A stretch of DNA of 56,659 bases. It comes from a virus. The stretch spans positions 1-56,659 of the IMG/VR virus record IMGVR_UViG_3300027648_000002. One strand, written 5' to 3'. The translations under genes were made by a program, and so were the position numbers. Of the stretch, positions 9,318-33,594 are shown one piece after another. Every line of letters starts with the position of its first letter. Position 1 is the first letter of the stretch. The notes under the pieces are model-generated. The model had not been told where the DNA came from, made no database searches, and saw only the letters and a list, made by a program, of their open reading frames with translations.

Positions 9318-9329
9318 TGCGGCCTCCCG

Positions 9330-11575: not shown

Positions 11576-11583
11576 GTGAAACG

Positions 11584-11877
11584 TCAGCTTCGGTCGGCGA
11601 TCTCCGCTGCGGTCTCGTTCGCCATGTCGTACACCGCCCGCAGGATCGTCAGGTAGGCCGGGTCAGCGCCGACGCTCAGCTCGAGCATCCCGGAGCCCTC
11701 GCACTCGCGGCACTCGCTGGGATGCGACCACCAGCGGCGCCTCGAGCTGCCCACGCCGCGACAGGCCGCGCATGCTTCGGTGAGGACGCCGCCGAACAGA
11801 CGCCGGAAGTCGACCTGGACGCCGAGCAGGGCGCAGTTCGCAGCCAGCCGGACTAGCTGGCTGCCTCGGATTCCCCC
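11584..11877 (-). CDS. -1 frame extension of the tail chaperone (T-like domain), carrying two CxxCxGxG zinc-finger repeats
   Basis: The -1 frame opens just after a TGA at 11890-11892 and stays open to the TGA at 11584-11586. Nearly all third positions are G/C. It encodes ...TEACAACRGVGSSRRRWWSHPSECRECEGSGMLEL.... No canonical start precedes the first motif. Confidence 0.55.
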   Translation of the reverse strand, partial: GGIRGSQLVRLAANCALLGVQVDFRRLFGGVLTEACAACRGVGSSRRRWWSHPSECRECEGSGMLELSVGADPAYLTILRAVYDMANETAAEIADRS

Positions 11878-12410: not shown

Positions 12411-12424
12411 CCGTTCCTCCTCAG

Positions 12425-12847
12425 CTAGCTGATTGGCCCATTCGGGCTAATTTTCAGTTGCAGTCTGACCTCCTCGGAGGCACCCGATTTGTAGTTCGGG
12501 CGCATGACGCCCGCCGCGACGCCCGTGTATGTGAAGACGTTGCCGGTGGATGCCTGTTCGGGGCCGAGCAGCGTGTAGCTCGCGGTGACGGCTGCCGCGA
12601 TGACCACGGAGCGCTCCATCGCCTTGTATGCCGTGACCATTGCTTCTGACCACAGCCGTTCCACGGTGATCGGCGAGCGCTTGGAGATGCCACCCAGCGC
12701 GATCTGTTCCTGCATAGCGCCGGGGAACACGATCACTTCCTCGGCTGCGATGTCGCCGCCCTCCACCATATCCCACGATTCGGCGTCGAGCGAAAGTCCG
12801 GCGATCGATACGTGGATCGAGACCTGGTCACTTCGGTATATCCGCAT
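12425..12847 (-). CDS. Tail tube protein (contractile tail)
   Basis: 140 aa, immediately downstream of the sheath gene. Confidence 0.7.
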   Translation of the reverse strand: MRIYRSDQVSIHVSIAGLSLDAESWDMVEGGDIAAEEVIVFPGAMQEQIALGGISKRSPITVERLWSEAMVTAYKAMERSVVIAAAVTASYTLLGPEQASTGNVFTYTGVAAGVMRPNYKSGASEEVRLQLKISPNGPIS

Positions 12848-12849
12848 GA

Positions 12850-14328: not shown

Positions 14329-14367
14329 GGTGTTGCCTCCTGTTGGGCGGGGGTTGCGTTGCTTGCT

Positions 14368-15045
14368 CTACAGCGGTGTGCCGGTCGGCTCGCCGATGAC
14401 GGTGACCTCGCCGTCTTTGGCGGTCGGCGCGGGCTCGAATGGTTCTTCGACGCCTGTGTAGCCGGGCGATTCGGCGGGTGTCAGACCGGTCGGCCCGGCC
14501 TGCTGCTCGATGATCGGCGCGACCCAGATCGAGAAGATCGTCACGCATGCCTGCTCCCGGCGCTTTTCCGTTTCGGGGACCTCGGGCTTCGGGGCGCTCG
14601 TCATCCGGACCCACTGAAGCTGTGGGAGCTCCTGCTGTAGCTCGCCGTGCTGCAGCAGCGCCATCACGGCGGCGCCGAAGTGGGCGACCTGCTGGCGTGC
14701 TGAGTCTTCGGGCTGGGTCTGCTGGACGCCCTCATCGCCCATTCCGATGCAGTAGACGGTCACCTCGTACGCCTGGACGTAGCCGACGGACGCGCTGACC
14801 TCCGGCTCGCCGTTGGGGACGACGACGACGATCACGGCGGGCAGTTCGTCCTGTTTCCAGGCGATGGCTTCCTCGGTGCCGCCGTGGATGCTCTCGGGGG
14901 TCGGGGGACGTCCGATGCTGCCGCGCTGAAGGCCACGCTGTTCCTCGACTTCCGCGAGGTAGACGTTCAGCCAAACCTTGATCGTCTTGATGACGGCCTG
15001 CTCGACATCCCAAGTCGAGACGAGCGGCCCGATCAGCGTGGTCAT
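14368..15045 (-). CDS. Neck / tail terminator-like protein
   Basis: Position between the connector and the sheath. ELPAVIVVVVPNGEP...YEVTVYCIG resembles the terminator-family pattern. Weak call. Confidence 0.45.
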   Translation of the reverse strand: MTTLIGPLVSTWDVEQAVIKTIKVWLNVYLAEVEEQRGLQRGSIGRPPTPESIHGGTEEAIAWKQDELPAVIVVVVPNGEPEVSASVGYVQAYEVTVYCIGMGDEGVQQTQPEDSARQQVAHFGAAVMALLQHGELQQELPQLQWVRMTSAPKPEVPETEKRREQACVTIFSIWVAPIIEQQAGPTGLTPAESPGYTGVEEPFEPAPTAKDGEVTVIGEPTGTPL

Positions 15046-15995
15046 GCTATGGACGGGTGTCTGCGGGATGGCTGGAGCATCTCGCGGACGGAGTGGGGGA
15101 GTCCGACCATGGGTTTGCCGCCTTCGTCATCGGCCCGGGTCAGTGCGCCGCGGCCGACGGCTTGGGTGGTCTCATACCACCAGCGGATCGTCTCCACGGC
15201 TCCGCGGCGCACGTTGGGCGGCACGGTCGACTGGCCGGCTTCGTAGACGACGTGCACGGCGTTGCGGCCGGGCATGAACTCGATCACGCCGCCGCCCGCG
15301 GTGCGTCTGGTCAGCTCGCCGAGCTGCGGGTTGACTTCGACGCTGTAGATCGAGCCGAACACGGGGTTAGGGACGAGCGAGAGGGGATACTCGATCGGGC
15401 CGCGGAACTCCGAGACGCCGAGGATGTTCAGGAGCGGGTTGGTTCCCCAGCCGTAGGTGGGTGGGTGCAGGAGGCTGATGATGTTGCTGCCGCCGTCGAA
15501 GCGTTCGTCGTAGATCTGCGGCAGGATCGGCCCGACGACTTCTTCGATCAAGGGCCGTACGGCTTCGATTTCGCCGAGCAGCCAGTCGTCGTGCTTGTGG
15601 TTGTCCGGGTCGATGAACAGCTTCTCCTTCAGTTCGCCGAGACCGACGAGCTGCGCGGCGCTCGCGGCGAACAGGTTGGGCTGGATCTCGAGCCACAGAT
15701 AACCGGTGGTTGGGAAGCTCTGGACTTCTCCGCCGGCGAATTTGACGCGCCAGTTGACCATGTAGTTGCCGGGCGTCGCCGTGTCCGCTGCGGAGGGGGC
15801 GTAGTTCAGCTTGCCGGCGGCCGCTTCGACGATGTTGACTTTGCCCGTGAGCGGCGCGGGTTCCCTGGCGGTCAGGGAGCGTAGGATGAATTCGACGGTG
15901 GCACCTTCGAGCTTGACGGGTTCGCCGTTGGAGTAGCTGAGCTGTTCCCCGAAGACAGGCTCGGTGTCGCCTTGCACGATCTGAAAATCCGGCAT
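15042..15995 (-). CDS. Head-tail adaptor/connector protein with an N-terminal Ig-like (BppU_N-like) domain
   Basis: N-terminus IVQGDTEPVFGEQL...PVKLEGATVEFILR. The middle region LGELKEKLFIDPDN...LLGEIEAVRPLIEEVVG is gp6-like. Confidence 0.55.
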   Translation of the reverse strand: MPDFQIVQGDTEPVFGEQLSYSNGEPVKLEGATVEFILRSLTAREPAPLTGKVNIVEAAAGKLNYAPSAADTATPGNYMVNWRVKFAGGEVQSFPTTGYLWLEIQPNLFAASAAQLVGLGELKEKLFIDPDNHKHDDWLLGEIEAVRPLIEEVVGPILPQIYDERFDGGSNIISLLHPPTYGWGTNPLLNILGVSEFRGPIEYPLSLVPNPVFGSIYSVEVNPQLGELTRRTAGGGVIEFMPGRNAVHVVYEAGQSTVPPNVRRGAVETIRWWYETTQAVGRGALTRADDEGGKPMVGLPHSVREMLQPSRRHPSIA

Positions 15996-16004
15996 GGAGC
16001 ACCT

Positions 16005-17594
16005 CTACTCGCCCGTGCGCTGGGAGGGATTCGAGCAACCGAGCACTTGAGATGGGCCGCTCTTGCCTGAGCGTTGGGATGGCGACGAGAACCCCGGTAG
16101 ACCAGGGCTCGGCTGGAACGCTTTGTTGGCAGTTGCCGACACCGCGCCCGCACCATGGCCTATCGCGGTCGATGTCCTACGAATCGTCGCTATGGTCGCG
16201 AGCGCCATCCCGGCACCCGAGGTACGAACCGCAATGCTGGCCCTCTTGGTGGCGCTGGCGTTGACGACGCCTGCACCATGCACGACGGCGGTGGCTGACG
16301 GCACCATCCGTCCCGACGCGGTCGCAGAGCCCGCTCCGTGGCCGCTCCCGGTGGCTGTAGCTCGACGGCCGGCCGTAGCCTGGCAGAGACCCGCCGTGTG
16401 GCTTTCGGCGACATTCGACGAGCGTTTGCTGCTGCCTACGGTGGACGCGGATCCGGCGCCGCTGGCGTGAGCTTCGTGTGACGCCAACACGGCATTGCCG
16501 GCTGCCGACGCCCCACCCGCCCCGTGAGCCACCACGGATGCTGTAGCGACACGCGACCCCGACGCGGTCGATCTACCGGTGCCGTGGGCAACAGACGAGG
16601 CCGACGCGATCCTTCCAACGGTCGCGGTCGCCTTCCCCGCACCCGACGTGCTGGCGGTGAGCGTGCCGCGCACCCCGTACGCCTGCAGAGGCAGTTCGCC
16701 CCATTCGATGGATTCCCAGGGAACCTTTTCGATCGTGGTGTAGGTCGAAGCGACCGACCGTTCGCTGTTTGTGCCGCCAGTCGTCTTGATCTTCAGGACC
16801 CCTTCACCGGCAGGGACCAGAAACGCGAGCGACTGAAATTTGCCTGCGCCTTCCCCAATCCGCAGTTCGAGACCGGTTACCGTCACCCAGCCGCCGCCCG
16901 AAGGGGTGCCCAGGTATGTCCCTACGCCCAGCAGGGCTCCGTTGCCGTGCGCGAACAGCCCGATCTGCACCTGCGTGGCCGTAGAGCCTGCGGGCCCGAC
17001 GTACAGGCGCATCATCCTTACGATGCCGCCGCCTTTGATCGGCAAGTATTCGCTGCGATAGATCACGCCCGGCAGCGCTTCGTGTTCGTTTTTGTAGGCT
17101 TCAGCTATCCCTGTCGATGGCCCCGCCAGCAACAGCAGCCCGGTCCCTTCGGCAGCGCAGAGTCCTGCGCCGTGAACCTGGGCGCTTGCCTGGACAGCGA
17201 TACGTGAGCTCGTGGCCTGCGCTTGCCCGGCGCCGTGCACAGCCGCGGCGCCAGCAGCAACCCTGGCGCCTTCGATCCGCGCGAGACCGGCACCAGTGAC
17301 TACCGCCGCAGATGAGGCGGTGCGCTTTGTGCTGGCAGTCGCTACGCCGGCGCCGTGAACGACGGCAGCAGTGGTGGCCACGCGCGACCCTTCAGCGCGA
17401 GCGCTCCCTGCGCCGTGGACTTCACCGGCACCCATCGCTACCCGCGAGGCTGTAGCCGCCCCAACGCCCGCACCGCTCACGGCCGCGAGCGCCACGCCCG
17501 GCGTCGCGGAGCTGCGGATAGGCCCGAACTCCCAGCTCCCGCGCTCATAGGCACGAGGGCGACGGCCCATGATCCCGCGCGCTATACGGGCCAT
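16005..17594 (-). CDS. Virion-module protein with about 15 tandem 20-aa HGAG repeats flanking a globular core
   Basis: Units such as VHGAGSARAEGSRVATTAAV and VHGAGVATASTKRTASSAAV recur N- and C-terminal to a roughly 170-aa beta-rich core. Good GC3. Confidence 0.7.
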   Translation of the reverse strand: MARIARGIMGRRPRAYERGSWEFGPIRSSATPGVALAAVSGAGVGAATASRVAMGAGEVHGAGSARAEGSRVATTAAVVHGAGVATASTKRTASSAAVVTGAGLARIEGARVAAGAAAVHGAGQAQATSSRIAVQASAQVHGAGLCAAEGTGLLLLAGPSTGIAEAYKNEHEALPGVIYRSEYLPIKGGGIVRMMRLYVGPAGSTATQVQIGLFAHGNGALLGVGTYLGTPSGGGWVTVTGLELRIGEGAGKFQSLAFLVPAGEGVLKIKTTGGTNSERSVASTYTTIEKVPWESIEWGELPLQAYGVRGTLTASTSGAGKATATVGRIASASSVAHGTGRSTASGSRVATASVVAHGAGGASAAGNAVLASHEAHASGAGSASTVGSSKRSSNVAESHTAGLCQATAGRRATATGSGHGAGSATASGRMVPSATAVVHGAGVVNASATKRASIAVRTSGAGMALATIATIRRTSTAIGHGAGAVSATANKAFQPSPGLPGFSSPSQRSGKSGPSQVLGCSNPSQRTGE

Positions 17595-17595
17595 C

Positions 17596-18807
17596 TCAGA
17601 TAACCGCCGAGCGTTGCACCGCCTGGCTCGCCATCAACACCCTGGGCAGCGCACTGGCCGCCGGCCCCACCACCACATAGGCGAGCGTGATGCCGCTCCA
17701 CAGGCCTGCTTCGGAGAACTTGCCCTTCGCGGTCAGCGTCGCGCCTTCCGCCGGGGTAGAGGTGTACTCTCCGCCGAGCGACAGGCCGGTCTGGTCAGCG
17801 CCCGTGAACGCTGTCATCCCGGCGCCGGCCGTGAACGTCCCGAGCGAGCCGGTGCTCGCGAAGAACGCGAGCCCGAAGTCGCCTTTGCCGCTGTTCGTTT
17901 TCGCCGAGGTCGATGCTTCGAGTTCGGTCGTGGCGAGCGCTGTCGTACCGGTCGCAGTCCCGCTCACGTCCACGCCCCCCGCGATGATGGCGACCTCACA
18001 TGCAGCGACATCAACCAGCACCAAGGAGCCCGCGACGGCCACTTTGACTTCGGTGATGCCTGCCGCGAGTCCTTTCGCTTTCCACGCCTGGAGGGTGGGG
18101 TGCACGCCGTCGTTGACTTCACCATCTAGGGTGTACGTGCTGCCTTTGTTGTCCGTTACGGTGGTGGCCGCGGCGACCCCCACGGCCGTCGCGACCGACA
18201 CGAACAAGTCGTTGCCGACGCCGGGTTCGGTGACCGTGACTTTGACAGTGCCCCCGCCGGACGGCGATTTTTCGGCGACGTGCCCGCTGCTGCGCCTGAG
18301 CGTCGCGGTTTCCGTTTCCACTTCGACGGACAGGTAGATCTCGTAGAAGTTGATCTGCGTCGAGCCGAGGTGTTCGGCCACAAGCAGTAGTTCTTCGAGC
18401 TTGGTCTTTGTTAGTTCTTCGGCCTGCGCTCTGGTCAGGCTGACCGTGAACCAGCCCTGGGCCGTGACTGTCGATTCCGGTTCGCTGCTCACCGATGGCG
18501 TGACGGTCCCGAACCGGATCAGTTTTTTCCCGGTCGCTGTCGATTTGACGTTGATATGGACCGTCGCGTTGACGACGGTCGCACCTTCACTGGTGAGTGC
18601 GCTCGTGAGCCCCGAAGGCAGCGTTAGGTTGCCTTCGACCTTCTTGCTGGCTGTCCCGATCTTCAGGAATTTGGCTGCGCCCGGGCTCGCGGGTTCTTCG
18701 ATCTGCCTCCCGACGACTTCTAGGGCAGTGCCGCCGCCTTCGATCGTCCATTCGTTGAGCGTGACTTCTTTGAGAAAGCAGTTGTATTTCTTCGTTTCGC
18801 GGGCCAC
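17596..18807 (-). CDS. Hypothetical virion protein (403 aa)
   Basis: Long ORF in the virion array with realistic T/S/A/V/G-rich composition. Confidence 0.6.
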   Translation of the reverse strand: MARETKKYNCFLKEVTLNEWTIEGGGTALEVVGRQIEEPASPGAAKFLKIGTASKKVEGNLTLPSGLTSALTSEGATVVNATVHINVKSTATGKKLIRFGTVTPSVSSEPESTVTAQGWFTVSLTRAQAEELTKTKLEELLLVAEHLGSTQINFYEIYLSVEVETETATLRRSSGHVAEKSPSGGGTVKVTVTEPGVGNDLFVSVATAVGVAAATTVTDNKGSTYTLDGEVNDGVHPTLQAWKAKGLAAGITEVKVAVAGSLVLVDVAACEVAIIAGGVDVSGTATGTTALATTELEASTSAKTNSGKGDFGLAFFASTGSLGTFTAGAGMTAFTGADQTGLSLGGEYTSTPAEGATLTAKGKFSEAGLWSGITLAYVVVGPAASALPRVLMASQAVQRSAVI

Positions 18808-18824
18808 TCAACGCTCCCGCGTGC

Positions 18825-19322
18825 TCAGCTCGGCCCCTGAATGAACTCGATGTAGGCGATGACCTTGACTTCCTGGGCCGCTTTGCACCGAAGCCCGAGC
18901 CCGACGAACGGCGATGTCAGCGCCGGGATTTCCGGCTCGCGGCCCAGGGGCGCCTGATACAGCAGCCCCGATGTCGGCGAGACCCGCCACACCTTCAGTG
19001 GGACGAGCGCCGTCGGCTCAGACGTTGCGGCAGCGAACGCCGTCATCGTGGCGGCTATCGCCGCCGCTGCGCCAGTGTTCCCGTTGCCTCTCGACATCGC
19101 CGGGGTCACGGACGTGTTGTTGGTGCCAGGCGTCGAGTTGGTCGCGTTCGTGGACTTGACGAGTTCGATCAGCACGGGTTCGTTGGCGGAGCTGACGCCG
19201 TTGAACGACACGCCGATCTCGACCACCTGGCCACCGATCAACGCCGTGGACTGCACCATCAGCACAGTCTTCGCGGTCGCCGCCGCGAGCGTCACTTCCC
19301 CGCTATTGGCCACATACTGCAT
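18825..19322 (-). CDS. Hypothetical virion protein
   Basis: 165 aa, in the array. Confidence 0.55.
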   Translation of the reverse strand: MQYVANSGEVTLAAATAKTVLMVQSTALIGGQVVEIGVSFNGVSSANEPVLIELVKSTNATNSTPGTNNTSVTPAMSRGNGNTGAAAAIAATMTAFAAATSEPTALVPLKVWRVSPTSGLLYQAPLGREPEIPALTSPFVGLGLRCKAAQEVKVIAYIEFIQGPS

Positions 19323-19325
19323 GAG

Positions 19326-19919
19326 CTACTGCGCGCCGAGAAGGTCGAGCGTGCTTTTTTTGACTTCGAACGAGCCGGCAGCAGAGAAAACTTCGGCCGT
19401 CACTTTCGCCAGCGCATACAACGTCCCGGCCGTCAACGCGGAATGGCTGGACACCCAGTTGACGGTGCACGCGCCCGCGATGACGACGGTGGCAGCGGCT
19501 TCTGATTCGGTCAAGGACTGTGCCGCCGCTTTCATCGTGACCGCTGCCCGCGTGTCGGACACCTCGGCGGCCTTGTGCACCGTGGCTGAGGACACGTTCG
19601 TGGTCCATGTGGCCTGCGCGAAGCTGGCCGTCTCAGAGAGTTCGATTTCGGTGGTGGAGACTTCTTTGACGAAGAACAGGCGTTCTGTGGCCGTCGTCCC
19701 TGTCAGTGACGCAAAGAGCGCGCCCGCGGTAGGACCAGCGAGTGCCGAGAAGTAGATCAGCATGCCGGTCGTCAGCCCGTGGGCTGTGTTGGATTTCAGG
19801 ATCGCGCCGGTACTCGTCCAGGTCTGCGCGAGCGTGGTGTCTTCATAGCAGCCGAGGTCTTTGACTTTGGCGACCATTTCGGCGAGCATCGCGTTCTTCG
19901 CATCCCCGGTGTACGGCAT
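19326..19919 (-). CDS. Hypothetical virion protein
   Basis: 197 aa, in the array. Confidence 0.55.
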   Translation of the reverse strand: MPYTGDAKNAMLAEMVAKVKDLGCYEDTTLAQTWTSTGAILKSNTAHGLTTGMLIYFSALAGPTAGALFASLTGTTATERLFFVKEVSTTEIELSETASFAQATWTTNVSSATVHKAAEVSDTRAAVTMKAAAQSLTESEAAATVVIAGACTVNWVSSHSALTAGTLYALAKVTAEVFSAAGSFEVKKSTLDLLGAQ

Positions 19920-19923
19920 CGCT

Positions 19924-20205
19924 CTACACCTGGCCTACGCTGATCGTGATGTGGTCTTTGACGGCACCCTCGTGGGGTGCGTGGCCGTCGTTGCCGTGGC
20001 CTTTCAGGCTCGCGGTCAAGGGCTCTGTGCCGAGCGCCCCGCTCGCGGCGAGAGAGACGCACGCTGCTTGGGCCGCCTTCACCTGCTCGGCCTCCTCGAC
20101 GGTCAGCTCGCGCTCGGGATTGCCCGACGGGACCACCGGCGCGTCCTCGGCTGCCTGCGCGAAATCCTCACCCGCGGTCGCGGGTACAACTGCTTCCCAG
20201 CTCAT
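19924..20205 (-). CDS. Hypothetical protein
   Basis: 93 aa, acidic, in the array. Confidence 0.5.
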   Translation of the reverse strand: MSWEAVVPATAGEDFAQAAEDAPVVPSGNPERELTVEEAEQVKAAQAACVSLAASGALGTEPLTASLKGHGNDGHAPHEGAVKDHITISVGQV

Positions 20206-20214
20206 AGGACGCTC

Positions 20215-20571
20215 CTAGATGTAGACGATGGTGAGCGGCGATGAGACCGCCGCGCTTGCGTGGATGATCAGCGACGTGGGGATCGCCGCTGGCAGCGAGT
20301 AGACCGTCGGGTTGGCCGGGCTGATGAGCAGACCCGTGTCTGCTTCGTTGGCGCTCGTGCGTAGCTTGAGTTCGGCTGTGCTCGCCGTGGGTGGGATGAT
20401 CAGGGCCGCCACCGTCCCTGCGGGCACGGTGAAGCGGTTGTCGCCGATGGTGAGCGGGGTGGCGAGCGTCTCGCCGATCACGACCGTGCCCTGGATGGTT
20501 ATCGGTCCGATCTGCCGGGAGCCGGCGGGCTCGGTCGCCGAGAGGCCCGTGATGTTCAGCGTGCCCGCCAT
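20215..20571 (-). CDS. Hypothetical small beta-rich protein
   Basis: 118 aa. ATGA-type junction with the upstream gene. Confidence 0.55.
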   Translation of the reverse strand: MAGTLNITGLSATEPAGSRQIGPITIQGTVVIGETLATPLTIGDNRFTVPAGTVAALIIPPTASTAELKLRTSANEADTGLLISPANPTVYSLPAAIPTSLIIHASAAVSSPLTIVYI

Positions 20572-21368
20572 TAGGCGAGCATGACCAGCGGCGCGATCGT
20601 CTTGCTCGTGACGGTCGTTTCCAGTTTGGCCTGTGCTTTTTCGCCGCCTTCGGATGCGGGCGCGGTCGTGAACGACAGGCCGATCGGGCCTTCACGGGTG
20701 CCCTGGGTGCCTTTCTGCTGAAAGCCCGCTTTGTAGTTCGTCTTGGCTTCTGGGGCCGTGACGGTCCAGCACGTCGGCGCGCCCGAGGTCACGATCGCGA
20801 ACATGACATAGATGAAGCCGTTGGGGCAGTTCGCTTCGGTCGCTTCGACGGTCCCTTTCAGCTTGAACCACGTCATCGTGTGCGCAACCCATGCCGTGCT
20901 GCCGCGGTTCGGTGATTCCTGGATCAGGACAGGCGCGGCGCTCTTGCCTTCATAGAGCGCGGCGACACCCCCCGTGGTGGTCCCGGCGGTTTCCCCGGTG
21001 AACACTCCGACTTCGGAGAAGATGTCGCCGAGTCGCACTGGCACCGCGACGACGTTCTGGACGGTCGTGGCACCGGGCGGCGCTTCGTCTTTCAAGCTCC
21101 CAAGCCCCATGTAGTCGCCGTTGGAGCGGCCCAGCCGGGACGGGAGCGCGACCTGTCTGACGTTGCCGTACAGGACCGCTGTCTCGCCCAGCGCCGAGCT
21201 TTCAGCGCCAGCGGCCGCCGAGACCTCTGAGGACGGCCCGAGGCTCAGGTTCGCGAGCGTGGCTATGACCGTGCTCACGGGGATCGCGAGCACGTTGGCG
21301 ACTTCGGCGACGCCCATCCTGGCGCCATAGGCCAGGTCGAAGATGCGTTCGTTCTGCGTGATAGCCAT
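20571..21368 (-). CDS. Hypothetical virion protein, paralog of 21976..22599
   Basis: Shares VAVPV..GD, (A)PNG(F/Y), PTC..VT and a C-terminal ...PL..L. pattern with the 207-aa protein. Confidence 0.6.
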   Translation of the reverse strand: MAITQNERIFDLAYGARMGVAEVANVLAIPVSTVIATLANLSLGPSSEVSAAAGAESSALGETAVLYGNVRQVALPSRLGRSNGDYMGLGSLKDEAPPGATTVQNVVAVPVRLGDIFSEVGVFTGETAGTTTGGVAALYEGKSAAPVLIQESPNRGSTAWVAHTMTWFKLKGTVEATEANCPNGFIYVMFAIVTSGAPTCWTVTAPEAKTNYKAGFQQKGTQGTREGPIGLSFTTAPASEGGEKAQAKLETTVTSKTIAPLVMLA

Positions 21369-21379: not shown

Positions 21380-21676
21380 TCAGATGATCTTTGCGAGGAT
21401 CTCCGAGGACTTGAGGACCACGAGGTCTTCGCCGTTGAACCGGATCTCTGTGCCGCCGTACTTGCTGTAGAGGACTTCGTGCCCGGCGGCGATCTCCGGC
21501 TCGATACGGACGCCTCGGTCTGTGAGGGCGCCGGGGCCTGTCGCGATCACGGTCCCGATCTGTGGCTTCTCGGCCGCGACAGCGGGAAGGATGAGGCCGC
21601 TCGCGCGCTCGAGGTCCTCCGGGGTGGGCCTGATGACTACCCGGTCAGCGAGCGGGCGGAGTTCCTGCTGGTGCAT
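21380..21676 (-). CDS. groES: GroES / Cpn10 co-chaperonin homologue
   Basis: 98 aa with an AGGAGG RBS. LRPLADRVVIRP, ASGLILP, AEKPQIGTVIATGPG and VLYSKYGGTEIRFNGEDLVVLKSSEILAKI are near-canonical actinobacterial GroES motifs. Confidence 0.9.
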   Translation of the reverse strand: MHQQELRPLADRVVIRPTPEDLERASGLILPAVAAEKPQIGTVIATGPGALTDRGVRIEPEIAAGHEVLYSKYGGTEIRFNGEDLVVLKSSEILAKII

Positions 21677-21711
21677 GCGTGGCCTCCTGGCGCATAGGGT
21701 TTCACTGAAAC

Positions 21712-21975
21712 CTATCCCGTCTTGAGGTCCGCCTCGGGATTGCAGGTCGGGCAGCGGTCGGCGAGCTGGTCGTGCTCGCAGCGCGGGCGCGGTGGCCGCC
21801 CGCGACGCGGGCGCGGCGGAACGGCCGTCTCCATCGCCTCGGGCGTCGCTGTCTCCAGCGGCGCGTCGAGCCGGGCAAGCTCCACGTCCATGCAGTGCAC
21901 CATGCTCGCGTCCCCCCGCGCCCGGGCGTTCGCCCGGGCCTCGCGGAAGGACTGGATGCGCTCGGCTCGCCCCAT
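21712..21975 (-). CDS. Hypothetical small protein
   Basis: 87 aa, directly abutting the flanking genes. Confidence 0.45.
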   Translation of the reverse strand: MGRAERIQSFREARANARARGDASMVHCMDVELARLDAPLETATPEAMETAVPPRPRRGRPPRPRCEHDQLADRCPTCNPEADLKTG

Positions 21976-22599
21976 CTACGTGAGGAAGATGAGCGGCACT
22001 TTTTCGAGGCCGACCTGGGCTTTGATCGTCAGGGCGGCTGCGGCGAGCGTCGCGCTTTTCTGTGCGGTGGTCACAGCGAAGCACGTCGGCGTGGTGGCGA
22101 ACCAGTTGTACTGCACTTTCGGTTTCATTTCGAAGCCGACCTGCGTGCCGGGTGTGGCCGCTTCGAGGTTCACGCCGGCGAACAGGTAGCCGTTTGGTGC
22201 GTTCGCGTTGTTGACGTACAGCGGGCTTTCCAGGGTGTAGGCGATGGCGGCGTATTCCGTCAGTTCGGTCGTGCCGCCCGCTTTGCTCTGCCCCAGCAGT
22301 TTCGGTTCGTTGGTGCCCGTGAGGCCCGAGTAGACCGCCGCGAACTGGTTCGTGATGGAGCTGCCGACAGCGGCCTGCAACATCGTGACCTTCGTGATGA
22401 CGTCGCCTTCCTGGACGGGGACCGCGACGAACGTGCCTTCTTTCGTCGTGATCATCGCCGCTGCGAGCAGCGAGTTGAGCCCCACGCCATACAGGTTGGA
22501 GCGTGCGGCGTTCTGCGAGTTGGTGACGTTGCTGGGGCGCCCCAGCAGCTTCCAGATCGGGTCTTCCTGGTGGTAGTGCCCGCCTGCGAGATCGGTCAT
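21976..22599 (-). CDS. Hypothetical virion protein, paralog of 20571..21368
   Basis: 207 aa, the first gene after the capsid-gene terminator. See the paralogy motifs listed for 20571..21368. Confidence 0.6.
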   Translation of the reverse strand: MTDLAGGHYHQEDPIWKLLGRPSNVTNSQNAARSNLYGVGLNSLLAAAMITTKEGTFVAVPVQEGDVITKVTMLQAAVGSSITNQFAAVYSGLTGTNEPKLLGQSKAGGTTELTEYAAIAYTLESPLYVNNANAPNGYLFAGVNLEAATPGTQVGFEMKPKVQYNWFATTPTCFAVTTAQKSATLAAAALTIKAQVGLEKVPLIFLT

Positions 22600-22674: not shown

Positions 22675-24387
22675 TTAGACCGCCGGCGGGTACGCCGTGG
22701 AGGTGTATTTGATCGAGCCGCCGCCGAGCGCCCCAAGGGGAGGTTCGAAGCCCGTCCCGGACGCGATGGCCAACGACTGGCCGTAGCGCATCAGGAACGC
22801 GTAATACTCGAACACCTGGAAGCGGATCTCCAGGGTGCCCGAGAGCACCTCGGAAAGCGCGCGGGTGCGGAGCAGCCCCTCGAACAGCCACGCGTCGTCG
22901 AACTTCGCGGCGAGCGCGATGTCCGCCGTGCCAGCACCGGGGGTGCCGCTGGTGTCCTTGGTCGGGATGTTCGCGTCGATGTAGACGTTGTGCGGCCCGA
23001 ACGGCAACGACCCGACCAGACCCTCTGCGGGCTCTTCGCCGGCGCCGTACAGGGCGCTGACGTTGTATGGCCCGAAGTCCGAACGGTTGGCCACCAGACG
23101 CCCAGACTTGCCTTCGGCACCGTCGAGGCCTGTCCCGAACCAGTACCAGCGGCGCGGGTGCATGACGAGATGAACGTTCTGCACAGCGAAACGCGACGCG
23201 GCGATCTGGGAGATCATCGCGCCCATCACCATGTTGAACGCGGTCACCAGCGGCGCCGCTTCGGTCCAGGTGACGGTGTTCGCCGACCAGTTCGTAGACG
23301 GGTACATGCCCTTGATCAGCCCGGCGTTCAGCGCGGTGGTGTTCGTGCCCGGCGCGGAGATCACCTGCCGGTCGAGGAACCTGTTGAGGTCCGCGATGAG
23401 GTCTTCCATGATCACCTCGTCGAGGTGATACGGGGACTGCTCGAGCAGTTGGATCGCGATGTCGGACTGGCCGGCTGCGGTCTTGACGTTCGCCGTCACC
23501 GCTTCGTCCGTCCAGTCTTTGTCAGCGACCGGGGCTGAGTCCTGGGTCTGGGCCGCGACTTCTGTGGGTTCTTTGATCTTCGGCAGGTTGATGCTGTCGG
23601 TGCCCTCGGGGAGCGGCATGCGACGGCACAGATCGGCCGTGGTGCGGCCCGCACGCAGGTAGGGGATGAACTCCGGCAGCCACAGCGGGGGGACGAAGAA
23701 CCCCCCCTGGCCGTCCAACCTGTTTGGGTTGACTCGCTTCTCTTCCAGCCGGGTGATGCCGAGCTGGCTGCGGACGAATGGGTCGTCGATCAGCCCTCGG
23801 GCACGGATGTTCAGCGGCCCGTGCAGTTCCCGGGTGATCTGGTGCTCGGCCGCGTCCGCCTCAGCACGGGCGCGCCGCTCGGATTCAGCGGCGATCTTCG
23901 GGAACTCGACGCGCATCTCTTTGATGTGGCTTTCGATGCGTTCGTCACCGGAGTTCCCGAGCTGCGCCCGTGCCCCTGGGAGGTCTTTCGCTGCGAGGTC
24001 ACGGAAGAACGAGAAGCCGTTCCCTCGTTCGTAGGTCAGCGGGTTGCTGATGACTTCCAGGCTTGCGGTGCCGCGTGAGGCCTCCTGCGCGTCCTGCGCA
24101 CGGCGTGCCAGCAGCTCCTCCTCGTCGATGCGGCGATCCAGTGCGTGGATCGCCGCGGTGCGCTGGTCGTGTGCGGCACCGAAGGCGCCCTCGTCCAGGT
24201 CGAACTGCGTGCGCTCCTCGTCGGTCACCTCTTTGGTGTCGCGTGCCTCAAACGCCGTGCGCTGCTCGCGGCGCTGAGTGATCGCGACAGCGGCCGCGTC
24301 GATCAGCTCCTTGCGCTGGTCCTGGAGCTGCTCGAGGATCGAACGCTCGTCGGTCGGCGCCTCTTTCTCTTTGGTTTCAGGGGGCAT
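22675..24387 (-). CDS. Major capsid protein, HK97 fold, with a long N-terminal coiled-coil (delta/scaffold-like) region
   Basis: Start at MPPETKEKE with an AGGAGG RBS. RVNPNRLDGQGGFFVPPLW and SDIAIQLLEQSP...ADLNRFLDRQV are Phage_capsid-type motifs. Confidence 0.9.
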   Translation of the reverse strand: MPPETKEKEAPTDERSILEQLQDQRKELIDAAAVAITQRREQRTAFEARDTKEVTDEERTQFDLDEGAFGAAHDQRTAAIHALDRRIDEEELLARRAQDAQEASRGTASLEVISNPLTYERGNGFSFFRDLAAKDLPGARAQLGNSGDERIESHIKEMRVEFPKIAAESERRARAEADAAEHQITRELHGPLNIRARGLIDDPFVRSQLGITRLEEKRVNPNRLDGQGGFFVPPLWLPEFIPYLRAGRTTADLCRRMPLPEGTDSINLPKIKEPTEVAAQTQDSAPVADKDWTDEAVTANVKTAAGQSDIAIQLLEQSPYHLDEVIMEDLIADLNRFLDRQVISAPGTNTTALNAGLIKGMYPSTNWSANTVTWTEAAPLVTAFNMVMGAMISQIAASRFAVQNVHLVMHPRRWYWFGTGLDGAEGKSGRLVANRSDFGPYNVSALYGAGEEPAEGLVGSLPFGPHNVYIDANIPTKDTSGTPGAGTADIALAAKFDDAWLFEGLLRTRALSEVLSGTLEIRFQVFEYYAFLMRYGQSLAIASGTGFEPPLGALGGGSIKYTSTAYPPAV

Positions 24388-24534
24388 TGGCCCCTCCTTT
24401 CGGGAGAACACCCTCGCGGGTGCTGGTGTGGTCTCTCCCGGGCGATACTCGACCTGCTCGGCCGGCACACGCGCGATTGCAAGGGGCGCGTGAAGGCGGC
24501 GAGGGCGGAGCCCAACGCGGGGTCACTGCAAGAT

Positions 24535-25815
24535 TTAGTAGCCCGACTGAACTTCCAGCGCTTTTCCGGTCAAATACGCCAGTCCCGTCGGGTAGCGGAA
24601 CAGCGCGGCGGCGTAACCGTGGAGCATGAAGCGCGCCTGCAGGGTGCCCGACAGGGTCTCCTTGTCCACCATCGTGCTCTTCGCTGTCTCGAACAGCATC
24701 GAGTCGGTGGGGCGGGCGCAGACGATGACGTCCTGGTTGCCGTTGATATTCACCGGGATCGCATCCGACAGGTAGGTCGGCCAGCCCAGGATCGGCGGTG
24801 CCACGGCAGGGCGCGTGTCGTCGAACGTGTACGGGACGGGCGGCAGCGCCTGGTGGCCCGGCACCGCGAGAGGAAGTTTCTCTTCGTCCTCTTCCGAGCC
24901 AATGTACGCCCAGCGGGCCGTCCGCATCAGCCAGACCTCGGGCGACACTTTGCGGGCGTCGCCGAGCTGTCCTGCGACCTTCCCGAGTTCCTTGAAGATT
25001 TCATAGCCTTTGGTGCCGGTCGCGGTTACTACCGACACGCCGCCGGCGCCTGTCGTGAGGTTCAAGATGCCTGCGATCTGCTGGTGGGATTTGCCGGTGC
25101 CGTTGAACAGCGCCGCCTCTAGAGCTTCGTCGTAGTCCTCCAGCAGGTCCTTGAGGATCGAGTGGTCCAGGTGCGCTCCGGCCGGGGACTGTTCGAGTAG
25201 TTGCATCGAACAGCCGGAGTTGCCGCTGAACGTCTCCACCCACGATTCGGCTGCGGCGTCGGTGAAGTCCTGGTCGGGGACCGGCGAGACATCCTGCGTC
25301 GCTTCAGCAGCGGTGCCGGGCGCCAGGATGCGCGGCAGCTTGATTTCCGAGACTTTGGCTGTCAGCGGGAAGGTGGGGATCAGGCTCGCGAGGACACGCT
25401 TGGCGCGCGGCGCCGTGGCGAAGGCCTCGTTGGCCCACAGCGGCGGCGAGAAGTAGCCGCCTTGGCCATCGATGCGGCTCGGGTTCACGCGCGTCTCAAG
25501 GCCCTCGGGGGCGCTGCGGTACACACGCTCCAGAAACCGCGGCATCTCGATGTCCATCTCGGCTGCGTGGCGTTGCAGGCGCCCGCTGGCCTCCTGGTCG
25601 CCGTTGATCTCGGCGAGCGCTCGGTCACGGAAGTAGCTGGTCGGGGTGTGCCGTTCGTAGGTCAGGGGTTCGCGGGTGGTGCGCACCTCGGGCCGGCGCA
25701 CGCGCTCTTCGGCGAGCACAACGTCGCGCAGCTCCGGCGGGATCGCCTCCCATGTCGCGCGGACCTCGTCGATCGCCGCGCGTGCCTGCTCCGCCGTGCG
25801 GGTCTCGTCAGTCAT
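24535..25815 (-). CDS. Second HK97-fold capsid protein, paralog of 22675..24387
   Basis: PLTYERHTPTSYFRD, RVNPSRIDGQGGYFSPPLW and CSMQLLEQSP...LEDYDEALEAALF align with capsid gene 1. Confidence 0.85.
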   Translation of the reverse strand: MTDETRTAEQARAAIDEVRATWEAIPPELRDVVLAEERVRRPEVRTTREPLTYERHTPTSYFRDRALAEINGDQEASGRLQRHAAEMDIEMPRFLERVYRSAPEGLETRVNPSRIDGQGGYFSPPLWANEAFATAPRAKRVLASLIPTFPLTAKVSEIKLPRILAPGTAAEATQDVSPVPDQDFTDAAAESWVETFSGNSGCSMQLLEQSPAGAHLDHSILKDLLEDYDEALEAALFNGTGKSHQQIAGILNLTTGAGGVSVVTATGTKGYEIFKELGKVAGQLGDARKVSPEVWLMRTARWAYIGSEEDEEKLPLAVPGHQALPPVPYTFDDTRPAVAPPILGWPTYLSDAIPVNINGNQDVIVCARPTDSMLFETAKSTMVDKETLSGTLQARFMLHGYAAALFRYPTGLAYLTGKALEVQSGY

Positions 25816-27323: not shown

Positions 27324-28643
27324 TTACTTGCCGATCATCGCCGGGTCGCCCTTGCCGTTCGGCGGGACGGGTTCCTCCGTCGGCTCTGGTGCGTACTTCG
27401 CTTCGATGGCCTCTTCCGCTTCGGCCATGACTTTTTCGAGCAGCGTCGTGTTGATCGGCGAATTCAGTTTGTCGCCGTCCTGCTCGGGCGGCAGGTCGAA
27501 CAGGGCGCGTGCATCGTTCGGTGTGAAGAACCCGCCCAGGGTGCCCAGCGAGCCGGCCTGCGCGCGCTCTAGCGTGTCGCCTCGCAGCCGGTGGCTCATG
27601 TCGATCGAGACGTACTCGCCGGGCGGGTGGACGGCGGTCATCGCGGCTTCGTAGCGGCCCGTGTAGTCCTGCAACGTGTTTTTCGTGAAGCCCAGCTCCA
27701 TCTGCTCGATGCCGCGTCCCCAGGCCGTCGTCTTTTCGGTCATGCCGAGCATGTGCGGCGGGCAGCGGAAGATCGTCCCGGCGATTTCTTCGCCGGAGAA
27801 CCGCATCGATTCGAGGAACTGCGAGTCCTGCGGGGTGATCGAGATCGGCTTGACTTCGGTGTCGCCTGTCACGATCGCCGGGAGGTGCGCCTGGCCGAGG
27901 CCCTGGTGGGCGGCCATGAACGACCGGACCATTTTCTTCGTCTGGTCGGGGCTCAGGTCGCCCTTGACCTGGATCACCAGCGACGGGTTAGCGCTGTTGG
28001 AGAAGTAGCGGGCGCCGTAGGTGCTCTGCGCGAGCGACTTGCTCAGCGACAAGCGCAATGACTGGATCGGGTTGACGCCCTGAAGCATCCCCGGCATCGT
28101 CAACAGCCGCACGTGAAAGACGTCTTTGAGCGGGACTTTCTTGTTGAAGAACTGGTATTCCAGTTCGCCGTTCTGTAGCCGTCGGACGGTTGCGTTGTCG
28201 GCGGGGATCGGCTTGATCTGCGTCGGGTACAGCGTCGCTTTGTCGCGGCTGATGACCTGCCCGAAGAACTCGCCGCGCAACGCCAGCGACGCGACGAACT
28301 GCACCATCCAGTCGAACAGGCTTATCTCGCAGTACGGTTCCGTCAACAGCGGCCCGGGCTTGAGTTCTTTGGCCTTGCGCAGCACCTTGCTGTTCAGCAG
28401 CAGCAGCGGCGAGTTCGCGATCGACGAGGACAGCAGGTTCGAGCAGCCATACACCGCCGCGATCTGCAACGCGGACTCCTGGCTGACGGCGATCCCGGCA
28501 GCCGACCCGTAGCCGCCGGCTTCTGCGTTGGTTGGCGGTGTGGAGTTGCCCCATTCAGATCCAGGCTGTGCCGCTCGGGCGTCCTGTGCGCCGTCGCTGC
28601 GGAGGTCAAGCGCGTTCGCGACCGCTTTCGTGAGCAGCGACAT
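27324..28643 (-). CDS. Portal protein (HK97-type Phage_portal)
   Basis: Start at MSLLTKAV. Family-typical region ...GVNPIQSLRLSLSKSLAQSTYGARYFSNSANPS...AHLPAIVTGD...QFLESMRFSGEEIA. Confidence 0.9.
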   Translation of the reverse strand: MSLLTKAVANALDLRSDGAQDARAAQPGSEWGNSTPPTNAEAGGYGSAAGIAVSQESALQIAAVYGCSNLLSSSIANSPLLLLNSKVLRKAKELKPGPLLTEPYCEISLFDWMVQFVASLALRGEFFGQVISRDKATLYPTQIKPIPADNATVRRLQNGELEYQFFNKKVPLKDVFHVRLLTMPGMLQGVNPIQSLRLSLSKSLAQSTYGARYFSNSANPSLVIQVKGDLSPDQTKKMVRSFMAAHQGLGQAHLPAIVTGDTEVKPISITPQDSQFLESMRFSGEEIAGTIFRCPPHMLGMTEKTTAWGRGIEQMELGFTKNTLQDYTGRYEAAMTAVHPPGEYVSIDMSHRLRGDTLERAQAGSLGTLGGFFTPNDARALFDLPPEQDGDKLNSPINTTLLEKVMAEAEEAIEAKYAPEPTEEPVPPNGKGDPAMIGK

Positions 28644-28656
28644 GCGGCAGCCCCTC

Positions 28657-28905
28657 TCAGACGGTCTTGGCGGCCCGGCGCGTCCTACGTTCCGCCTTTC
28701 GCTCCGCGCGCCACAGCGTGAGCTTGACGCGCACATCGTGCACGGCGGCGAGCGTCAGCTTGATCGGGTTCAGCCCCTCGACCGCGAGCGCGAGCAGCCC
28801 GAGCACAACGCTCGCGCCGATCAGCGCCCAGCCGCGCCCCGCCAGTTCGTAGACGCCGGCGACGAACACGCTGCCGGACAGCCCGTAGAGCGCGTTGGCG
28901 AACAT
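28657..28905 (-). CDS. Small membrane protein (2 predicted TM segments)
   Basis: Hydrophobic stretches LYGLSGSVFVAGVY and GWALIGASVVLGLLALAV, with a basic tail. Confidence 0.5.
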   Translation of the reverse strand: MFANALYGLSGSVFVAGVYELAGRGWALIGASVVLGLLALAVEGLNPIKLTLAAVHDVRVKLTLWRAERKAERRTRRAAKTV

Positions 28906-29969: not shown

Positions 29970-30137
29970 GTGACGCCCGAGCAGCGCAAGGCGCTAATCA
30001 AGCGGATCTACCGCGAAGGTGAGCAGCCGAACTGCTGGCATGTGTTCGTGGGCGACAAGCAGTGGGACGTGATAGGGAATGCCGACGACGCCCGAGAGCA
30101 AGCGCGGTTGGAGAGGGCGCTCCAGGAAGAAGGCTAG
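29970..30137 (+). CDS. Small hypothetical protein (55 aa, below the ORF-track cutoff)
   Basis: GTG at 29970. VTPEQRKALIKRIYREGEQPNCWHVFVGDKQWDVIGNADDAREQARLERALQEEG. Its TAG overlaps the TerL stop in a convergent arrangement. Confidence 0.4.
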   Translation: MTPEQRKALIKRIYREGEQPNCWHVFVGDKQWDVIGNADDAREQARLERALQEEG

Positions 30138-31678
30138 GCGTAGGGGTCTGAGAGGTCCTCTCCGGCCTCGAGCATTTCCCGGTAGACCTCGTTCATGTCG
30201 ATGATCTGAGAGTCGGCGGGTGTGGGGAGGCTGCGCAGGCCCCACAGCGCCAGGGTGACGGCCACGAGCACGCTGATGTCGATGCTGCTGTTGATTCTGC
30301 TCCAGAGCCATGCCTCGCCGAGCGGTCGCTTGACGGCGCCTTTGATGGCGTCTGTCAGGTCGGGCTCGCCGAGGTGACGCAGCGCGGTCTGTTTGACGAG
30401 GTCGAAGATCGCCGCGCACGCTTGGGCGTGCTCTTTGGCGCTGATCGGCGTGAACTCGATGTGCAGCGCTTCGAGCTGCGCGGGCACGGGGCCGGCGAGC
30501 GTCTCGTCGAGGACCGTGCCGATGACCTTGTGGTCCTCTTTGAGCTTTTCGACACGTTGGGCGACCCAGCTCGTGCTGCGCTTGTGTTCGATGATCTCCA
30601 GGTGGGGCAGGCCGTCGGCCCGGTAGCCCGCGACGCATATCGCGCTGAACGAGCGGTCCGGGGTCGTGTCGCAGCCAAGGCAGACCGGACCCACGATCTG
30701 GGAGTCCGCGTCGATGCACTTCGCCCATTGGTCGGGGTCAATCACGGGCGCCACGTTTCCGTCGGTTCTCGGCCATGCTCCGACTCCCAGCCGCTGCACG
30801 GCGAACGTGCGACGGTCCATCGAGCGCTTCTCAAGCGCGATGTGCTCCGGGTCGATGCGCTTGCCCAGGCCGGGGTTCGCCAGCGCCCACATGCGCGGGT
30901 CGCCCGCGACCTTGTCCGGGACACCGTCGGGATCGTCAAACGGCAGCGACCACTCCATGTAGGCCAGGGCCGGGTCGTCGCCTTTGATGCCGCGCTCGCG
31001 GACCCTGGCGAACACGATCCCGTCATGCGACGGGTTCTCCTCGTCGACTGCCGAGCCGGTGTACCAGACCTGGATGTTCGGCATGGCCGACAAGGTCGGC
31101 AGCAGCGCGCCGTGCATCGCCATCGAGATGATCATGGCCTCGTCGAAGATCAGGCAGTCGATCGAGAAGCCCAGGCCGCCGCTGCCGGTGCGGGTGCGGA
31201 ATTGGATGGTCGGCGCGACCCCCGTTTTGCGGTTGCGCAGCAGCGTGATCGACTCGTTGCCGTGGCCGCGCAGAATTTTGTCTACACGCCGGTCAAGCTC
31301 CGGGTCGTTTTCGATCAGCGTCGCTACCCGCAGGAAGTGCTGCGCTGAGGTGTCGAACTGGTGTGCGGTGTGGACGATCAGGCTCTCTTCGAGCAGGAAC
31401 AGTCCGGTGATCTCCCGTGCCTCTAGGATCGAGCCCTTGCCGTTCTGGCGCGAGAGCATCTCGCCGACCTCGCGGGCCGCCCAGCGGCCGTCGGCGCGTT
31501 CGCCGAGCGCGTGCCCCAGCGAGAACTGCTGCCAGTCGTCGAGGTGCAGCCCCGCTTTGGCGGTGAGGTCGACCGCTTCTTCACCGGTCGATGTCGCGTA
31601 GGCCGGGTAGGTGCAGATCCTAGGTCGCTGCGCGCCGACGAGCGGTCCGGCGTTTGGCGCGACGATCGTTGAGCTCAT
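30134..31678 (-). CDS. Terminase large subunit
   Basis: 514 aa. SRQNGKGS (Walker A-like), CLIFDEA (Walker B) and a nuclease-half pattern. Upstream of the portal. Confidence 0.9.
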   Translation of the reverse strand: MSSTIVAPNAGPLVGAQRPRICTYPAYATSTGEEAVDLTAKAGLHLDDWQQFSLGHALGERADGRWAAREVGEMLSRQNGKGSILEAREITGLFLLEESLIVHTAHQFDTSAQHFLRVATLIENDPELDRRVDKILRGHGNESITLLRNRKTGVAPTIQFRTRTGSGGLGFSIDCLIFDEAMIISMAMHGALLPTLSAMPNIQVWYTGSAVDEENPSHDGIVFARVRERGIKGDDPALAYMEWSLPFDDPDGVPDKVAGDPRMWALANPGLGKRIDPEHIALEKRSMDRRTFAVQRLGVGAWPRTDGNVAPVIDPDQWAKCIDADSQIVGPVCLGCDTTPDRSFSAICVAGYRADGLPHLEIIEHKRSTSWVAQRVEKLKEDHKVIGTVLDETLAGPVPAQLEALHIEFTPISAKEHAQACAAIFDLVKQTALRHLGEPDLTDAIKGAVKRPLGEAWLWSRINSSIDISVLVAVTLALWGLRSLPTPADSQIIDMNEVYREMLEAGEDLSDPYA

Positions 31679-33267: not shown

Positions 33268-33594
33268 CTATCTCAGCAGGCTGAGCGACCTGCTGGGCTC
33301 AGTGCGCTTCTGGAACGCCGGGAGCCGGTCGGCCAAGAACTCGCGGACGCGTGCCTGGTCAAGCACGAGTTTGGACGGCCCGAAGGTCAGCACGATCCGG
33401 CCACGGTAGCTTGATTTGCCGGTCTTGTCGAAGTGGGCGAACAGCACTGCGGCGGACTCCTCGAGCAACGGCTTGAGCCGGTCCATTTCCTGGCGGCACG
33501 TGATCCACTGGTCGCCGGCCTCGGCGAGCGTCAGGCTTCGCTTGGAGACACGCGGCGGGGCTTGGAGGGTCGCGGTCGCCATCCCGACTACCAT
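33268..33594 (-). CDS. Hypothetical protein
   Basis: 108 aa with realistic composition. Confidence 0.55.
   Translation of the reverse strand: MVVGMATATLQAPPRVSKRSLTLAEAGDQWITCRQEMDRLKPLLEESAAVLFAHFDKTGKSSYRGRIVLTFGPSKLVLDQARVREFLADRLPAFQKRTEPSRSLSLLR

Follow-up and report, generated by a model that had tools for sequence, protein, structure and literature searches.

The window analysed here is the whole of IMG/VR virus record IMGVR_UViG_3300027648_000002, 56,659 nucleotides in length, and represents a myovirus-like phage genome of about 57 kb. Its head-module genes are all on the minus strand. The module encodes one portal protein and one S78 prohead protease for two capsid genes, here called cap1 and cap2 (Table 1). 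These two paralogous open reading frames (ORFs), and the lack of a separate scaffold gene between the protease and the capsid genes, had been pointed out in an earlier note made from the letters of the window, and both are present as described. The ATG of cap1 overlaps the stop codon of the protease gene as ATGA. For cap2, a longer GTG-initiated ORF reaches position 24468; public gene calls of the same contig give 500, 426 and 570 amino acids (aa) for the protease, cap1 and cap2. The window phage has been assembled on seven independent public contigs with the same gene calls, and the two-gene arrangement is therefore not an assembly artefact. On the contig ERZ27256038 k141_1212334 (56,701 bp), the capsid genes are seen at 7519-10799 in the opposite orientation relative to the window. 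This permuted position suggests a circularly permuted or circular assembly, i.e., a complete genome. The head module has no megablast match among 50,697 phage records; only protein-level relatives exist.

Table 1. Features of the head module and its surroundings in the window.
Feature	Position	Strand	Evidence or remark
cap1, smaller capsid paralogue of predicted HK97 fold, 426 aa	24535-25815	minus	PF05065, phrog_2263, AlphaFold2, Foldseek
Spacer between cap1 and cap2, 147 nt	24388-24534	minus	3' end holds the ribosome-binding site AGGAGG, 6 nt before the cap2 ATG
cap2, larger capsid paralogue of predicted HK97 fold, 570 aa	22675-24387	minus	PF05065, phrog_2263, AlphaFold2, Foldseek
GC-rich hairpin, 14-bp stem and 7-nt loop	22628-22662	minus	Folding; starts 13 nt past the cap2 stop
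Prohead protease, single copy, 500 aa	25812-27314	minus	Pfam PF04586 (S78), E=1.5e-20; PHROG head maturation protease
Portal protein gene, start of the head module	27324-28736	minus	Pfam PF04860, E=1.8e-62
Terminase large subunit (terL)	30134-31678	minus	Upstream of the portal gene
207-aa gene (o207)	21976-22599	minus	Directly after cap2; tblastn synteny
GroES/Cpn10 co-chaperonin homologue	21380-21721	minus	Pfam, E=1.8e-25; phrog_3188
265-aa gene, paralogous to o207	20571-21368	minus	Mutual paralogy
Head-tail adaptor gene	15042-15995		Separated from cap2 by about 6.5 kb of unannotated genes

The two capsid proteins are homologous over nearly their entire lengths. BLASTP aligns residues 50-421 of cap1 with residues 116-548 of cap2 at 31% identity (E=7e-45), and hhalign of the two family alignments gives a probability of 100% (E=5.6e-87) over 388 columns. 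Both match the Pfam model PF05065 (Phage_capsid), cap1 with 36.7 bits and cap2 with 47.7 bits (gathering cut-off 24.2), and the best PHROG match of both is phrog_2263, annotated as major head protein. The motifs PLTYER..FRD, RVNPxRxDGQGGxFxPPLW and QLLEQSP, which the earlier note had listed as shared and collinear, are present in the same order in cap1 and cap2. Structures were predicted with AlphaFold2 from alignments of 40 and 45 sequences, respectively; these are models and not solved structures. The mean predicted local distance difference test (pLDDT) score is 79.7 for cap1 and 73.4 for cap2. With Foldseek, the top match of both models in the Protein Data Bank (PDB) is HK97 gp5 (E=1.5e-12 for cap1 and E=6e-13 for cap2), and template modelling (TM) scores against HK97 gp5 chains, normalised by the target, are 0.65-0.79. 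The N-arm, E-loop, spine helix, P-domain and A-domain of HK97 are all seen in both models. Thus cap1 and cap2 are full-length homologues and are predicted to be complete HK97-fold proteins; the earlier note had called them paralogous HK97-fold capsid genes. Two findings named there as fatal to the idea, a similarity limited to short motifs and a degenerate copy without the P- and A-domain core, were not obtained: the homology is global, and both proteins keep the core according to Pfam, AlphaFold2 and Foldseek. Sequence searches of the PDB with the family profiles of cap1 and cap2 returned no matches, which indicates that this capsid family has no solved structure. In the Foldseek matches, cap1 and cap2 cannot be told apart by whether they align to the hexamer chains of HK97 or to its pentamer chain G.

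The two models have a common layout. An N-terminal helical region is followed by the segment PLTYER..FRD..RH..EM, by a low-confidence linker, and by the core, in which the N-arm with RVNPxRxDGQGGxFxPPLW, the E-loop, LLEQSP with the spine helix, and the A- and P-domains are found. In cap1, about 115 aa predicted as helical or disordered precede the core (helices at residues 8-24, 27-40, 61-70 and 74-101, low-confidence linker at 104-119, core from about residue 120), and there is no C-terminal extension. The N-terminal region of cap2 is about 225 aa long (helices at residues 17-48, 56-104 and 147-189, disordered linker at 195-226, core from about residue 228). The proximal half of the cap1 region is homologous to that of cap2. 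Relative to cap1, cap2 has long helices amounting to about 95 aa at its very N-terminus, an insertion of about 45 aa before the N-arm, small insertions in the A-domain, and a C-terminal extension of 17-18 aa past the aligned end of cap1. Based on the models, the delta-like region is about HK97-size in cap1 and about twice as long in cap2. The earlier note had ascribed a long coiled-coil N-terminus to the downstream copy only; cap2 is indeed the longer one, but cap1 has a helical or disordered region too. Measured up to the PLTY motif, the N-terminal segment in the relatives has a median length of about 34 aa in cap1 versus 99 aa in cap2, values that are approximate as they come from a bounded search for the start codon and Shine-Dalgarno (SD) sequence. 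Between the family consensus sequences of the paralogues, identity is 0.70 in the N-arm and 0.58 in the proximal delta segment, the highest values, and 0.33 in the A-domain, the lowest.

Database searches returned 109 homologues of cap1 and 190 homologues of cap2. Three groups can be told apart: the cap1 family (mostly 380-430 aa), the cap2 family (513-602 aa), and a wider set of capsid proteins, here called "single", that come from mycobacteriophages and actinobacterial prophages. Members of this wider set are nearer to cap2 (36-42% identity) than to cap1 (30-35%), and the genes of these single-copy relatives are seen in genomes of Acidimicrobiia, Solirubrobacterales and Paraconexibacter. The nearest cultured relatives are Mycobacterium phages Bipper and Typha, the Omega-like phages of cluster J, and prophiT37-1; each of their genomes gives one match and is annotated with portal, protease and one capsid gene in this order.

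A pattern scan of IMG/VR with cap1 alone found nothing, and an alignment query recovered loci. Family hidden Markov models were then run over 97 loci fetched in cap1-seeded searches and over the window. The order protease-cap1-cap2 is found in 42 of these loci. A cap1-type gene without cap2 is found in 11, each with at least 2.5 kb of downstream sequence, and some of these are satellite-like. In four loci a cap1-like gene is combined with a "single"-like gene, in the order portal-cap1-protease-capsid gene. In the reciprocal search seeded with cap2, cap1 lies directly upstream in 30 of the 31 loci, the exception being L123, and all 46 loci of the "single" family contain one capsid gene. Whether related genomes keep both copies, a question raised in the earlier note, is answered by these counts. 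The distribution of the genes indicates that cap2-type genes depend near-obligately on a neighbouring cap1, and that cap1-type genes can stand alone.

The surroundings of the pair are conserved as well. Based on tblastn synteny, relatives have the order terL-portal-protease-cap1-cap2-o207-...-o118-...-adaptor-...-sheath, and like the window they have one S78 protease gene before both capsid genes. A prophage copy with protease-cap1-cap2 is present on a 1.34-Mb contig of a metagenome-assembled genome. Even in relatives with only about 40% identity, the two genes keep their order. In a neighbour-joining tree, cap1 and cap2 each form one separate clade, and the sub-clades of the two match; examples are {window, L002, L001}, {L044, L045, L047, L061} and {L059, L064, L070, L071}. 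These separate and parallel clades, together with the conservation of the pair across divergent loci, indicate that the duplication is ancient and has been kept by selection.

Several loci show variant arrangements. In L002, a relative of 105.9 kb, cap1 and cap2 are about 5.3 kb apart, and the intervening stretch (2662-8000) contains ORFs of 522, 350, 423 and 237 aa without Pfam matches and a tRNA gene at 7774-7845. This locus shows that cap1 and cap2 need not be strictly adjacent. Among the more distant relatives, L075 and L078 have the order portal, cap1-like gene, protease and cap2-like "single" capsid gene, and in L074 the order is reversed relative to these two. L086 contains two "single"-type capsid genes about 5 kb apart, and in L123 the sole cap2-type gene lies right after the protease without cap1. 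L081 and L083 also belong to the distant relatives with variant arrangements. L003 is a compact chromosomal element of Paraconexibacter antarcticus (NZ_CP098502.1, 2565977-2587152), in which the protease is followed by a cap1-type gene (462 aa), two small genes, and homologues of window 8505-9317 and 6430-8508, the latter with tail-protein PHROG matches. It contains neither cap2 nor the sheath region, which would suit a reduced prophage or some other element that bears a capsid gene.

Two other elements with a cap1-type gene are satellite-like and integrative: L101 (10001-12779, in a context of 5430-21167) and L020 (1385-4310). They are 89-93% identical to each other at the amino acid level over the three shared genes compared. 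They encode a cap1-type protein 59% identical to that of the window, a charged coiled-coil scaffold-like protein of 224 aa, and an S78 protease 72% identical to that of the window. Neither portal nor terminase is found in 21 kb of the locus. The flanks contain genes for helix-turn-helix regulators, replication-initiator, helicase-loader and topoisomerase-like proteins, an integrase, and a TrwC relaxase with a type IV secretion system coupling protein. The gene at 8056-8373 of L101 is 64% identical to window 33271-33552. In the protease of these elements, the segment homologous to the first 96 or so residues of the window protease lies after the protease domain, and the domain order is thus permuted.

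In some relatives, cap2 is split by insertions of 0.8-1.1 kb located precisely in its most conserved motifs. L002 (8662-9503) and L022 (12805-13691) have insertions of about 0.85 kb within the motif GQGG|(F/Y)F, and L169 has insertions at about 4864-6000 and 6256-7035, at GQGG|FF and LLEQSP. The insertions of L002 and L022 match an Rfam group I intron model with scores under its gathering cut-off (E=4.7e-6 and 1.7e-10); at the gathering threshold of Rfam the introns are not reported, and the matches are seen at the relaxed threshold only. The inferred splice sites, with U at the end of the 5' exon and G at the end of the intron, restore the conserved motif and the reading frame. The L002 insertion contains an antisense LAGLIDADG ORF at 8907-9467. 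The cap2 gene of the window contains no intron.

Signals for expression differ between the two genes. The SD duplex energy in the window is -15.2 kcal/mol for cap2 versus -6.9 kcal/mol for cap1. Across 27 loci it is -10.2 versus -8.7 kcal/mol (p=0.048), a weak trend to which little weight is given. The GC-rich stem-loop that the earlier note had seen only after the second gene is indeed restricted to this position and is conserved in relatives. Its folding energy is about -30 kcal/mol (centroid -29.9), and folding of the spacer between cap1 and cap2 gives no strong single hairpin. For each of 29 non-redundant related loci, the best hairpins within 100 nt after cap1 and after cap2 were compared; that of cap2 is the stronger in 23 loci, and the mean energies are -28.5 kcal/mol for cap2 versus -21.5 kcal/mol for cap1 (Wilcoxon p=2.6e-4). 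A scan of the window for consensus promoters and terminators found nothing on the coding strand; the hairpin after cap2 was missed because it has no T-tail. This hairpin is probably a terminator, an attenuator or an mRNA-stabilising element closing the capsid transcription unit. From the overlap of their codons, cap1 appears to be translationally coupled to the protease, itself a low-copy head protein. At the level of sequence, the expression signals favour cap2 over cap1.

The best-known dual-capsid-protein head is that of T4, in which the paralogous proteins gp23 and gp24 form hexons and pentons, gp23 has the longer propeptide, and one prohead protease processes both. The window resembles T4 in that a single head module contains two paralogous shell genes of HK97 fold, in its one protease, and in the contractile-tail type. 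It differs from T4 in that Pfam and PHROG scans give only PF05065 and phrog_2263/10/617 and no T4 Gp23-type model, in its genome size (about 57 kb versus 169 kb), and in the lack of a gp22-like separate scaffold gene. The likeness to gp23/gp24 is best considered as functional analogy, not as family membership.

Dual HK97-fold capsid proteins are described as rare in the review literature. The Mycobacterium abscessus phage Jabs, a T=9 siphovirus with a disulfide-stabilised capsid, was presented in July 2026 as the first dual-capsid-protein phage of T=9 geometry, with the adjacent HK97-fold genes MCPh (ORF72) and MCPp (ORF73) (bioRxiv 10.64898/2026.07.24.740622). MCPh has 594 aa, of which about 266 at the N-terminus are lost, and its C-terminus carries a turret extension of 17 residues; MCPp has 257 aa, is without N-terminal domain or C-terminal extension, and is 18% identical to MCPh (bioRxiv 10.64898/2026.07.24.740622). 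With its 570 aa, N-terminal region of about 225 aa and C-terminal extension of 17-18 aa, cap2 is similar to MCPh. Compared by description, the pair differs from that of Jabs in the size of cap1 (426 aa, with a delta-like region), in the 31% identity between the paralogues and in the myovirus-like genome. The small paralogue of the Jabs type is without an N-terminal maturation domain, and about 115 residues precede the core of cap1.

Ekchuahviridae, metagenome-derived head-tailed viruses of ANME-1 archaea, contain two divergent HK97 capsid genes; a protease of its own accompanies each gene, and one of the two appears to have come by horizontal transfer (PMC9894754). The window is similar in that its viral genome is likewise metagenome-derived and contains two divergent capsid genes of HK97 fold. 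Unlike these viruses, the window and its relatives have one protease, tandem genes, and co-divergence across a large clade. With HK97 gp5 and the single-copy phages of phrog_2263, the window has in common the order portal-protease-capsid gene and a scaffold fused as N-terminal domain. The closest cultured sequence relatives, mycobacteriophages of clusters J and Y and prophages of M. abscessus (28-40% identity), have one capsid gene, in contrast to two in the window lineage. The duplication of cap1 and cap2 appears to be independent of the known cases.

Both cap1 and cap2 are very probably shell subunits of one capsid. By analogy with T4 and Jabs, the shell is probably a two-component one, with cap2 forming the hexons and providing the scaffold and cap1 forming the pentons, and this assignment is held with moderate confidence. 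In such a shell, cap2 would be made in large amounts, with its helical delta-like domain of about 225 residues acting as its own scaffold, and its hexamers would make up most of the shell. The cap1 protein, translationally coupled to the protease and carrying only a short delta-like region, would co-assemble in the same lattice, since it has the N-arm motif and the proximal delta-like part in common with cap2. Its pentamers would occupy the eleven non-portal vertices and close the shell, and the protease would then cleave off the N-terminal regions of both proteins.

Several observations are consistent with a hexon role of cap2 and a penton role of cap1. The asymmetric linkage, with cap2 next to cap1 in 30 of 31 loci and cap1 alone in 11, fits a cap2 that is unable to close the shell alone. 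High identity in the N-arm and the proximal delta segment, together with low identity in the A-domain, is consistent with inter-capsomer and scaffold contacts that the paralogues share, and with intra-capsomer contacts that have diverged. The long N-terminal domain and the C-terminal extension of cap2, together with the smaller size of cap1, parallel the known hexon/penton pairs. Of the divisions of labour considered in the earlier note, hexon and penton is thus the best supported, by the linkage, by the parallels in size and extensions to T4 and Jabs, and by the expression signals; capsid and cement is unlikely, as both proteins are predicted to have the complete HK97 fold.

Other observations weigh against the hexon/penton assignment. 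A cap1-type gene is the only capsid gene in L003 and in L101/L020, which indicates that the cap1 lineage is not intrinsically penton-only, and one cap2-type gene (L123) occurs without cap1. Unlike Jabs MCPp or T4 gp24, cap1 of the window retains an N-terminal region of about 115 aa. In ordinary HK97 capsid proteins, too, the A-domain is commonly the more diverged part. The SD difference is weak across relatives, and several loci have strong SD sequences before cap1. The tree, built by simple neighbour joining, carries no support values, and its midpoint rooting cannot tell a tandem duplication from the capture of a foreign capsid gene. Finally, we infer that both proteins are present in the virion, which of them forms hexons or pentons, how they are processed by proteolysis, and in what stoichiometry they occur.

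Both proteins could instead be in the shell with another partition, either in mixed capsomers or with cap1 in a subset of hexamers such as prolate caps or a portal-proximal ring. Co-inheritance and lattice-compatible motifs fit this equally well. A cap1-type protein is the sole capsid protein elsewhere and presumably can form hexamers, and cap1 keeps a delta-like region like a normal capsid protein. However, both structurally solved dual-capsid cases considered here, T4 and Jabs, split hexon and penton. We know of no mixed capsomers in an HK97-fold capsid. Mixed rings are also made less likely by the A-domain, which provides the axial contacts within the capsomer and has diverged more than any other region. 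Such a partition appears rather unlikely.

It is improbable that only one of the two proteins builds a given particle, with the pair serving as alternative or conditional capsid proteins for different head sizes or hosts, or as an immunity decoy. The solitary occurrence of cap1-type and, once, cap2-type genes in some elements would agree with it, and the role of the two ekchuahvirus capsid proteins is unresolved in the literature (PMC9894754). Yet cap1 and cap2 have one protease, one portal and one operon in common, with the spacer as the only regulatory break between them; the nearly invariable linkage of cap2 to cap1 is unexpected for interchangeable alternatives, and the parallel divergence points to joint selection.

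The position of cap1, in the gap between protease and capsid gene where a scaffold gene usually lies, and its apparent translational coupling to the protease would also suit a non-virion assembly factor, which nucleates or templates the assembly of cap2 and is then degraded or expelled. The module contains no separate scaffold gene. Nevertheless, cap1 retains all elements of a shell subunit at good model confidence as well as the conserved lattice motifs, and a long delta-like domain is already present in cap2. In the satellite-like elements, moreover, the cap1-type gene is paired with a separate coiled-coil scaffold-like protein, so that cap1 would be the shell protein there. This role of cap1 is very improbable.

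A recent redundant tandem duplication, proposed as an option in the earlier note, or one degenerate copy is suggested by the tandem position only and is refuted by the 31% identity, by the intact ORFs conserved in their own large families and clades with parallel sub-clades, and by the retention of the pair on dozens of contigs that have diverged from one another. Three further candidates were rejected: a cement protein, as both proteins are predicted to have the complete HK97 fold; a pseudogene or degenerate copy, as both ORFs are intact and family-conserved; and an encapsulin, given the portal, terminase and tail genes around the pair.

It can be speculated that cap2 is an obligate hexamer-only subunit and cap1 a portable "capsid-closing" module, and that L101 and L020 are satellites of dual-capsid-protein phages. 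This is quite unlikely to hold. If it did, these satellites would bring their own scaffold and their own vertex or shell protein, and with them re-size or hijack the capsids of a helper, a mechanism of piracy distinct from Sid, CpmB, TcaP and the capsid-forming phage-inducible chromosomal islands (PICIs).

Other genes of the head module may contribute to the head. The gene o207 lies directly after cap2 in all the dual-capsid loci inspected by tblastn (L001, L002, L025, L031, L033, L037, L059, L066 and L070). Both o207 and its 265-aa paralogue encode proteins rich in Ala, Thr and Gly that have no Pfam or PHROG match; they may be head components, as candidate decoration or cement proteins. The GroES/Cpn10 gene lies within the head module, at a distance of about 950 bp downstream from cap2. 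It is reminiscent of T4 gp31, which is needed for the folding of gp23. In the inspected subset of related loci, tblastn found no counterpart of it. In the protease, the S78 domain corresponds to aa 257-412 and is followed by a C-terminal tail of about 90 aa. The protein is unusually long, with an N-terminal extension of about 250 aa that contains a DnaJ-type CxxCxGxG zinc-ribbon at aa 186-228, which matches the Pfam models DnaJ_CXXCXGXG and Anti-TRAP weakly.

HK97-type icosahedral heads are the textbook case of one protein in both hexamer and pentamer environments. Two specialised paralogues are known mainly from T4-like phages and from mycobacteriophage Jabs (2026 preprint, bioRxiv 10.64898/2026.07.24.740622). 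A dual-capsid-protein head is thus uncommon but not unprecedented, and the present pair is apparently independent and widespread in metagenomes. The data suggest that a two-gene solution has been stably inherited in a large lineage of uncultured phages and prophages of high GC content. The lineage is useful in that the duplication is apparently independent, the dependence of the two genes is asymmetric, and the paralogues are similar enough (31%) to map the changed residues. The evolution of quasi-equivalence into specialisation becomes directly testable in this lineage, and annotation pipelines would gain a rule by which the capsid genes of this family could be labelled "hexamer" or "pentamer".

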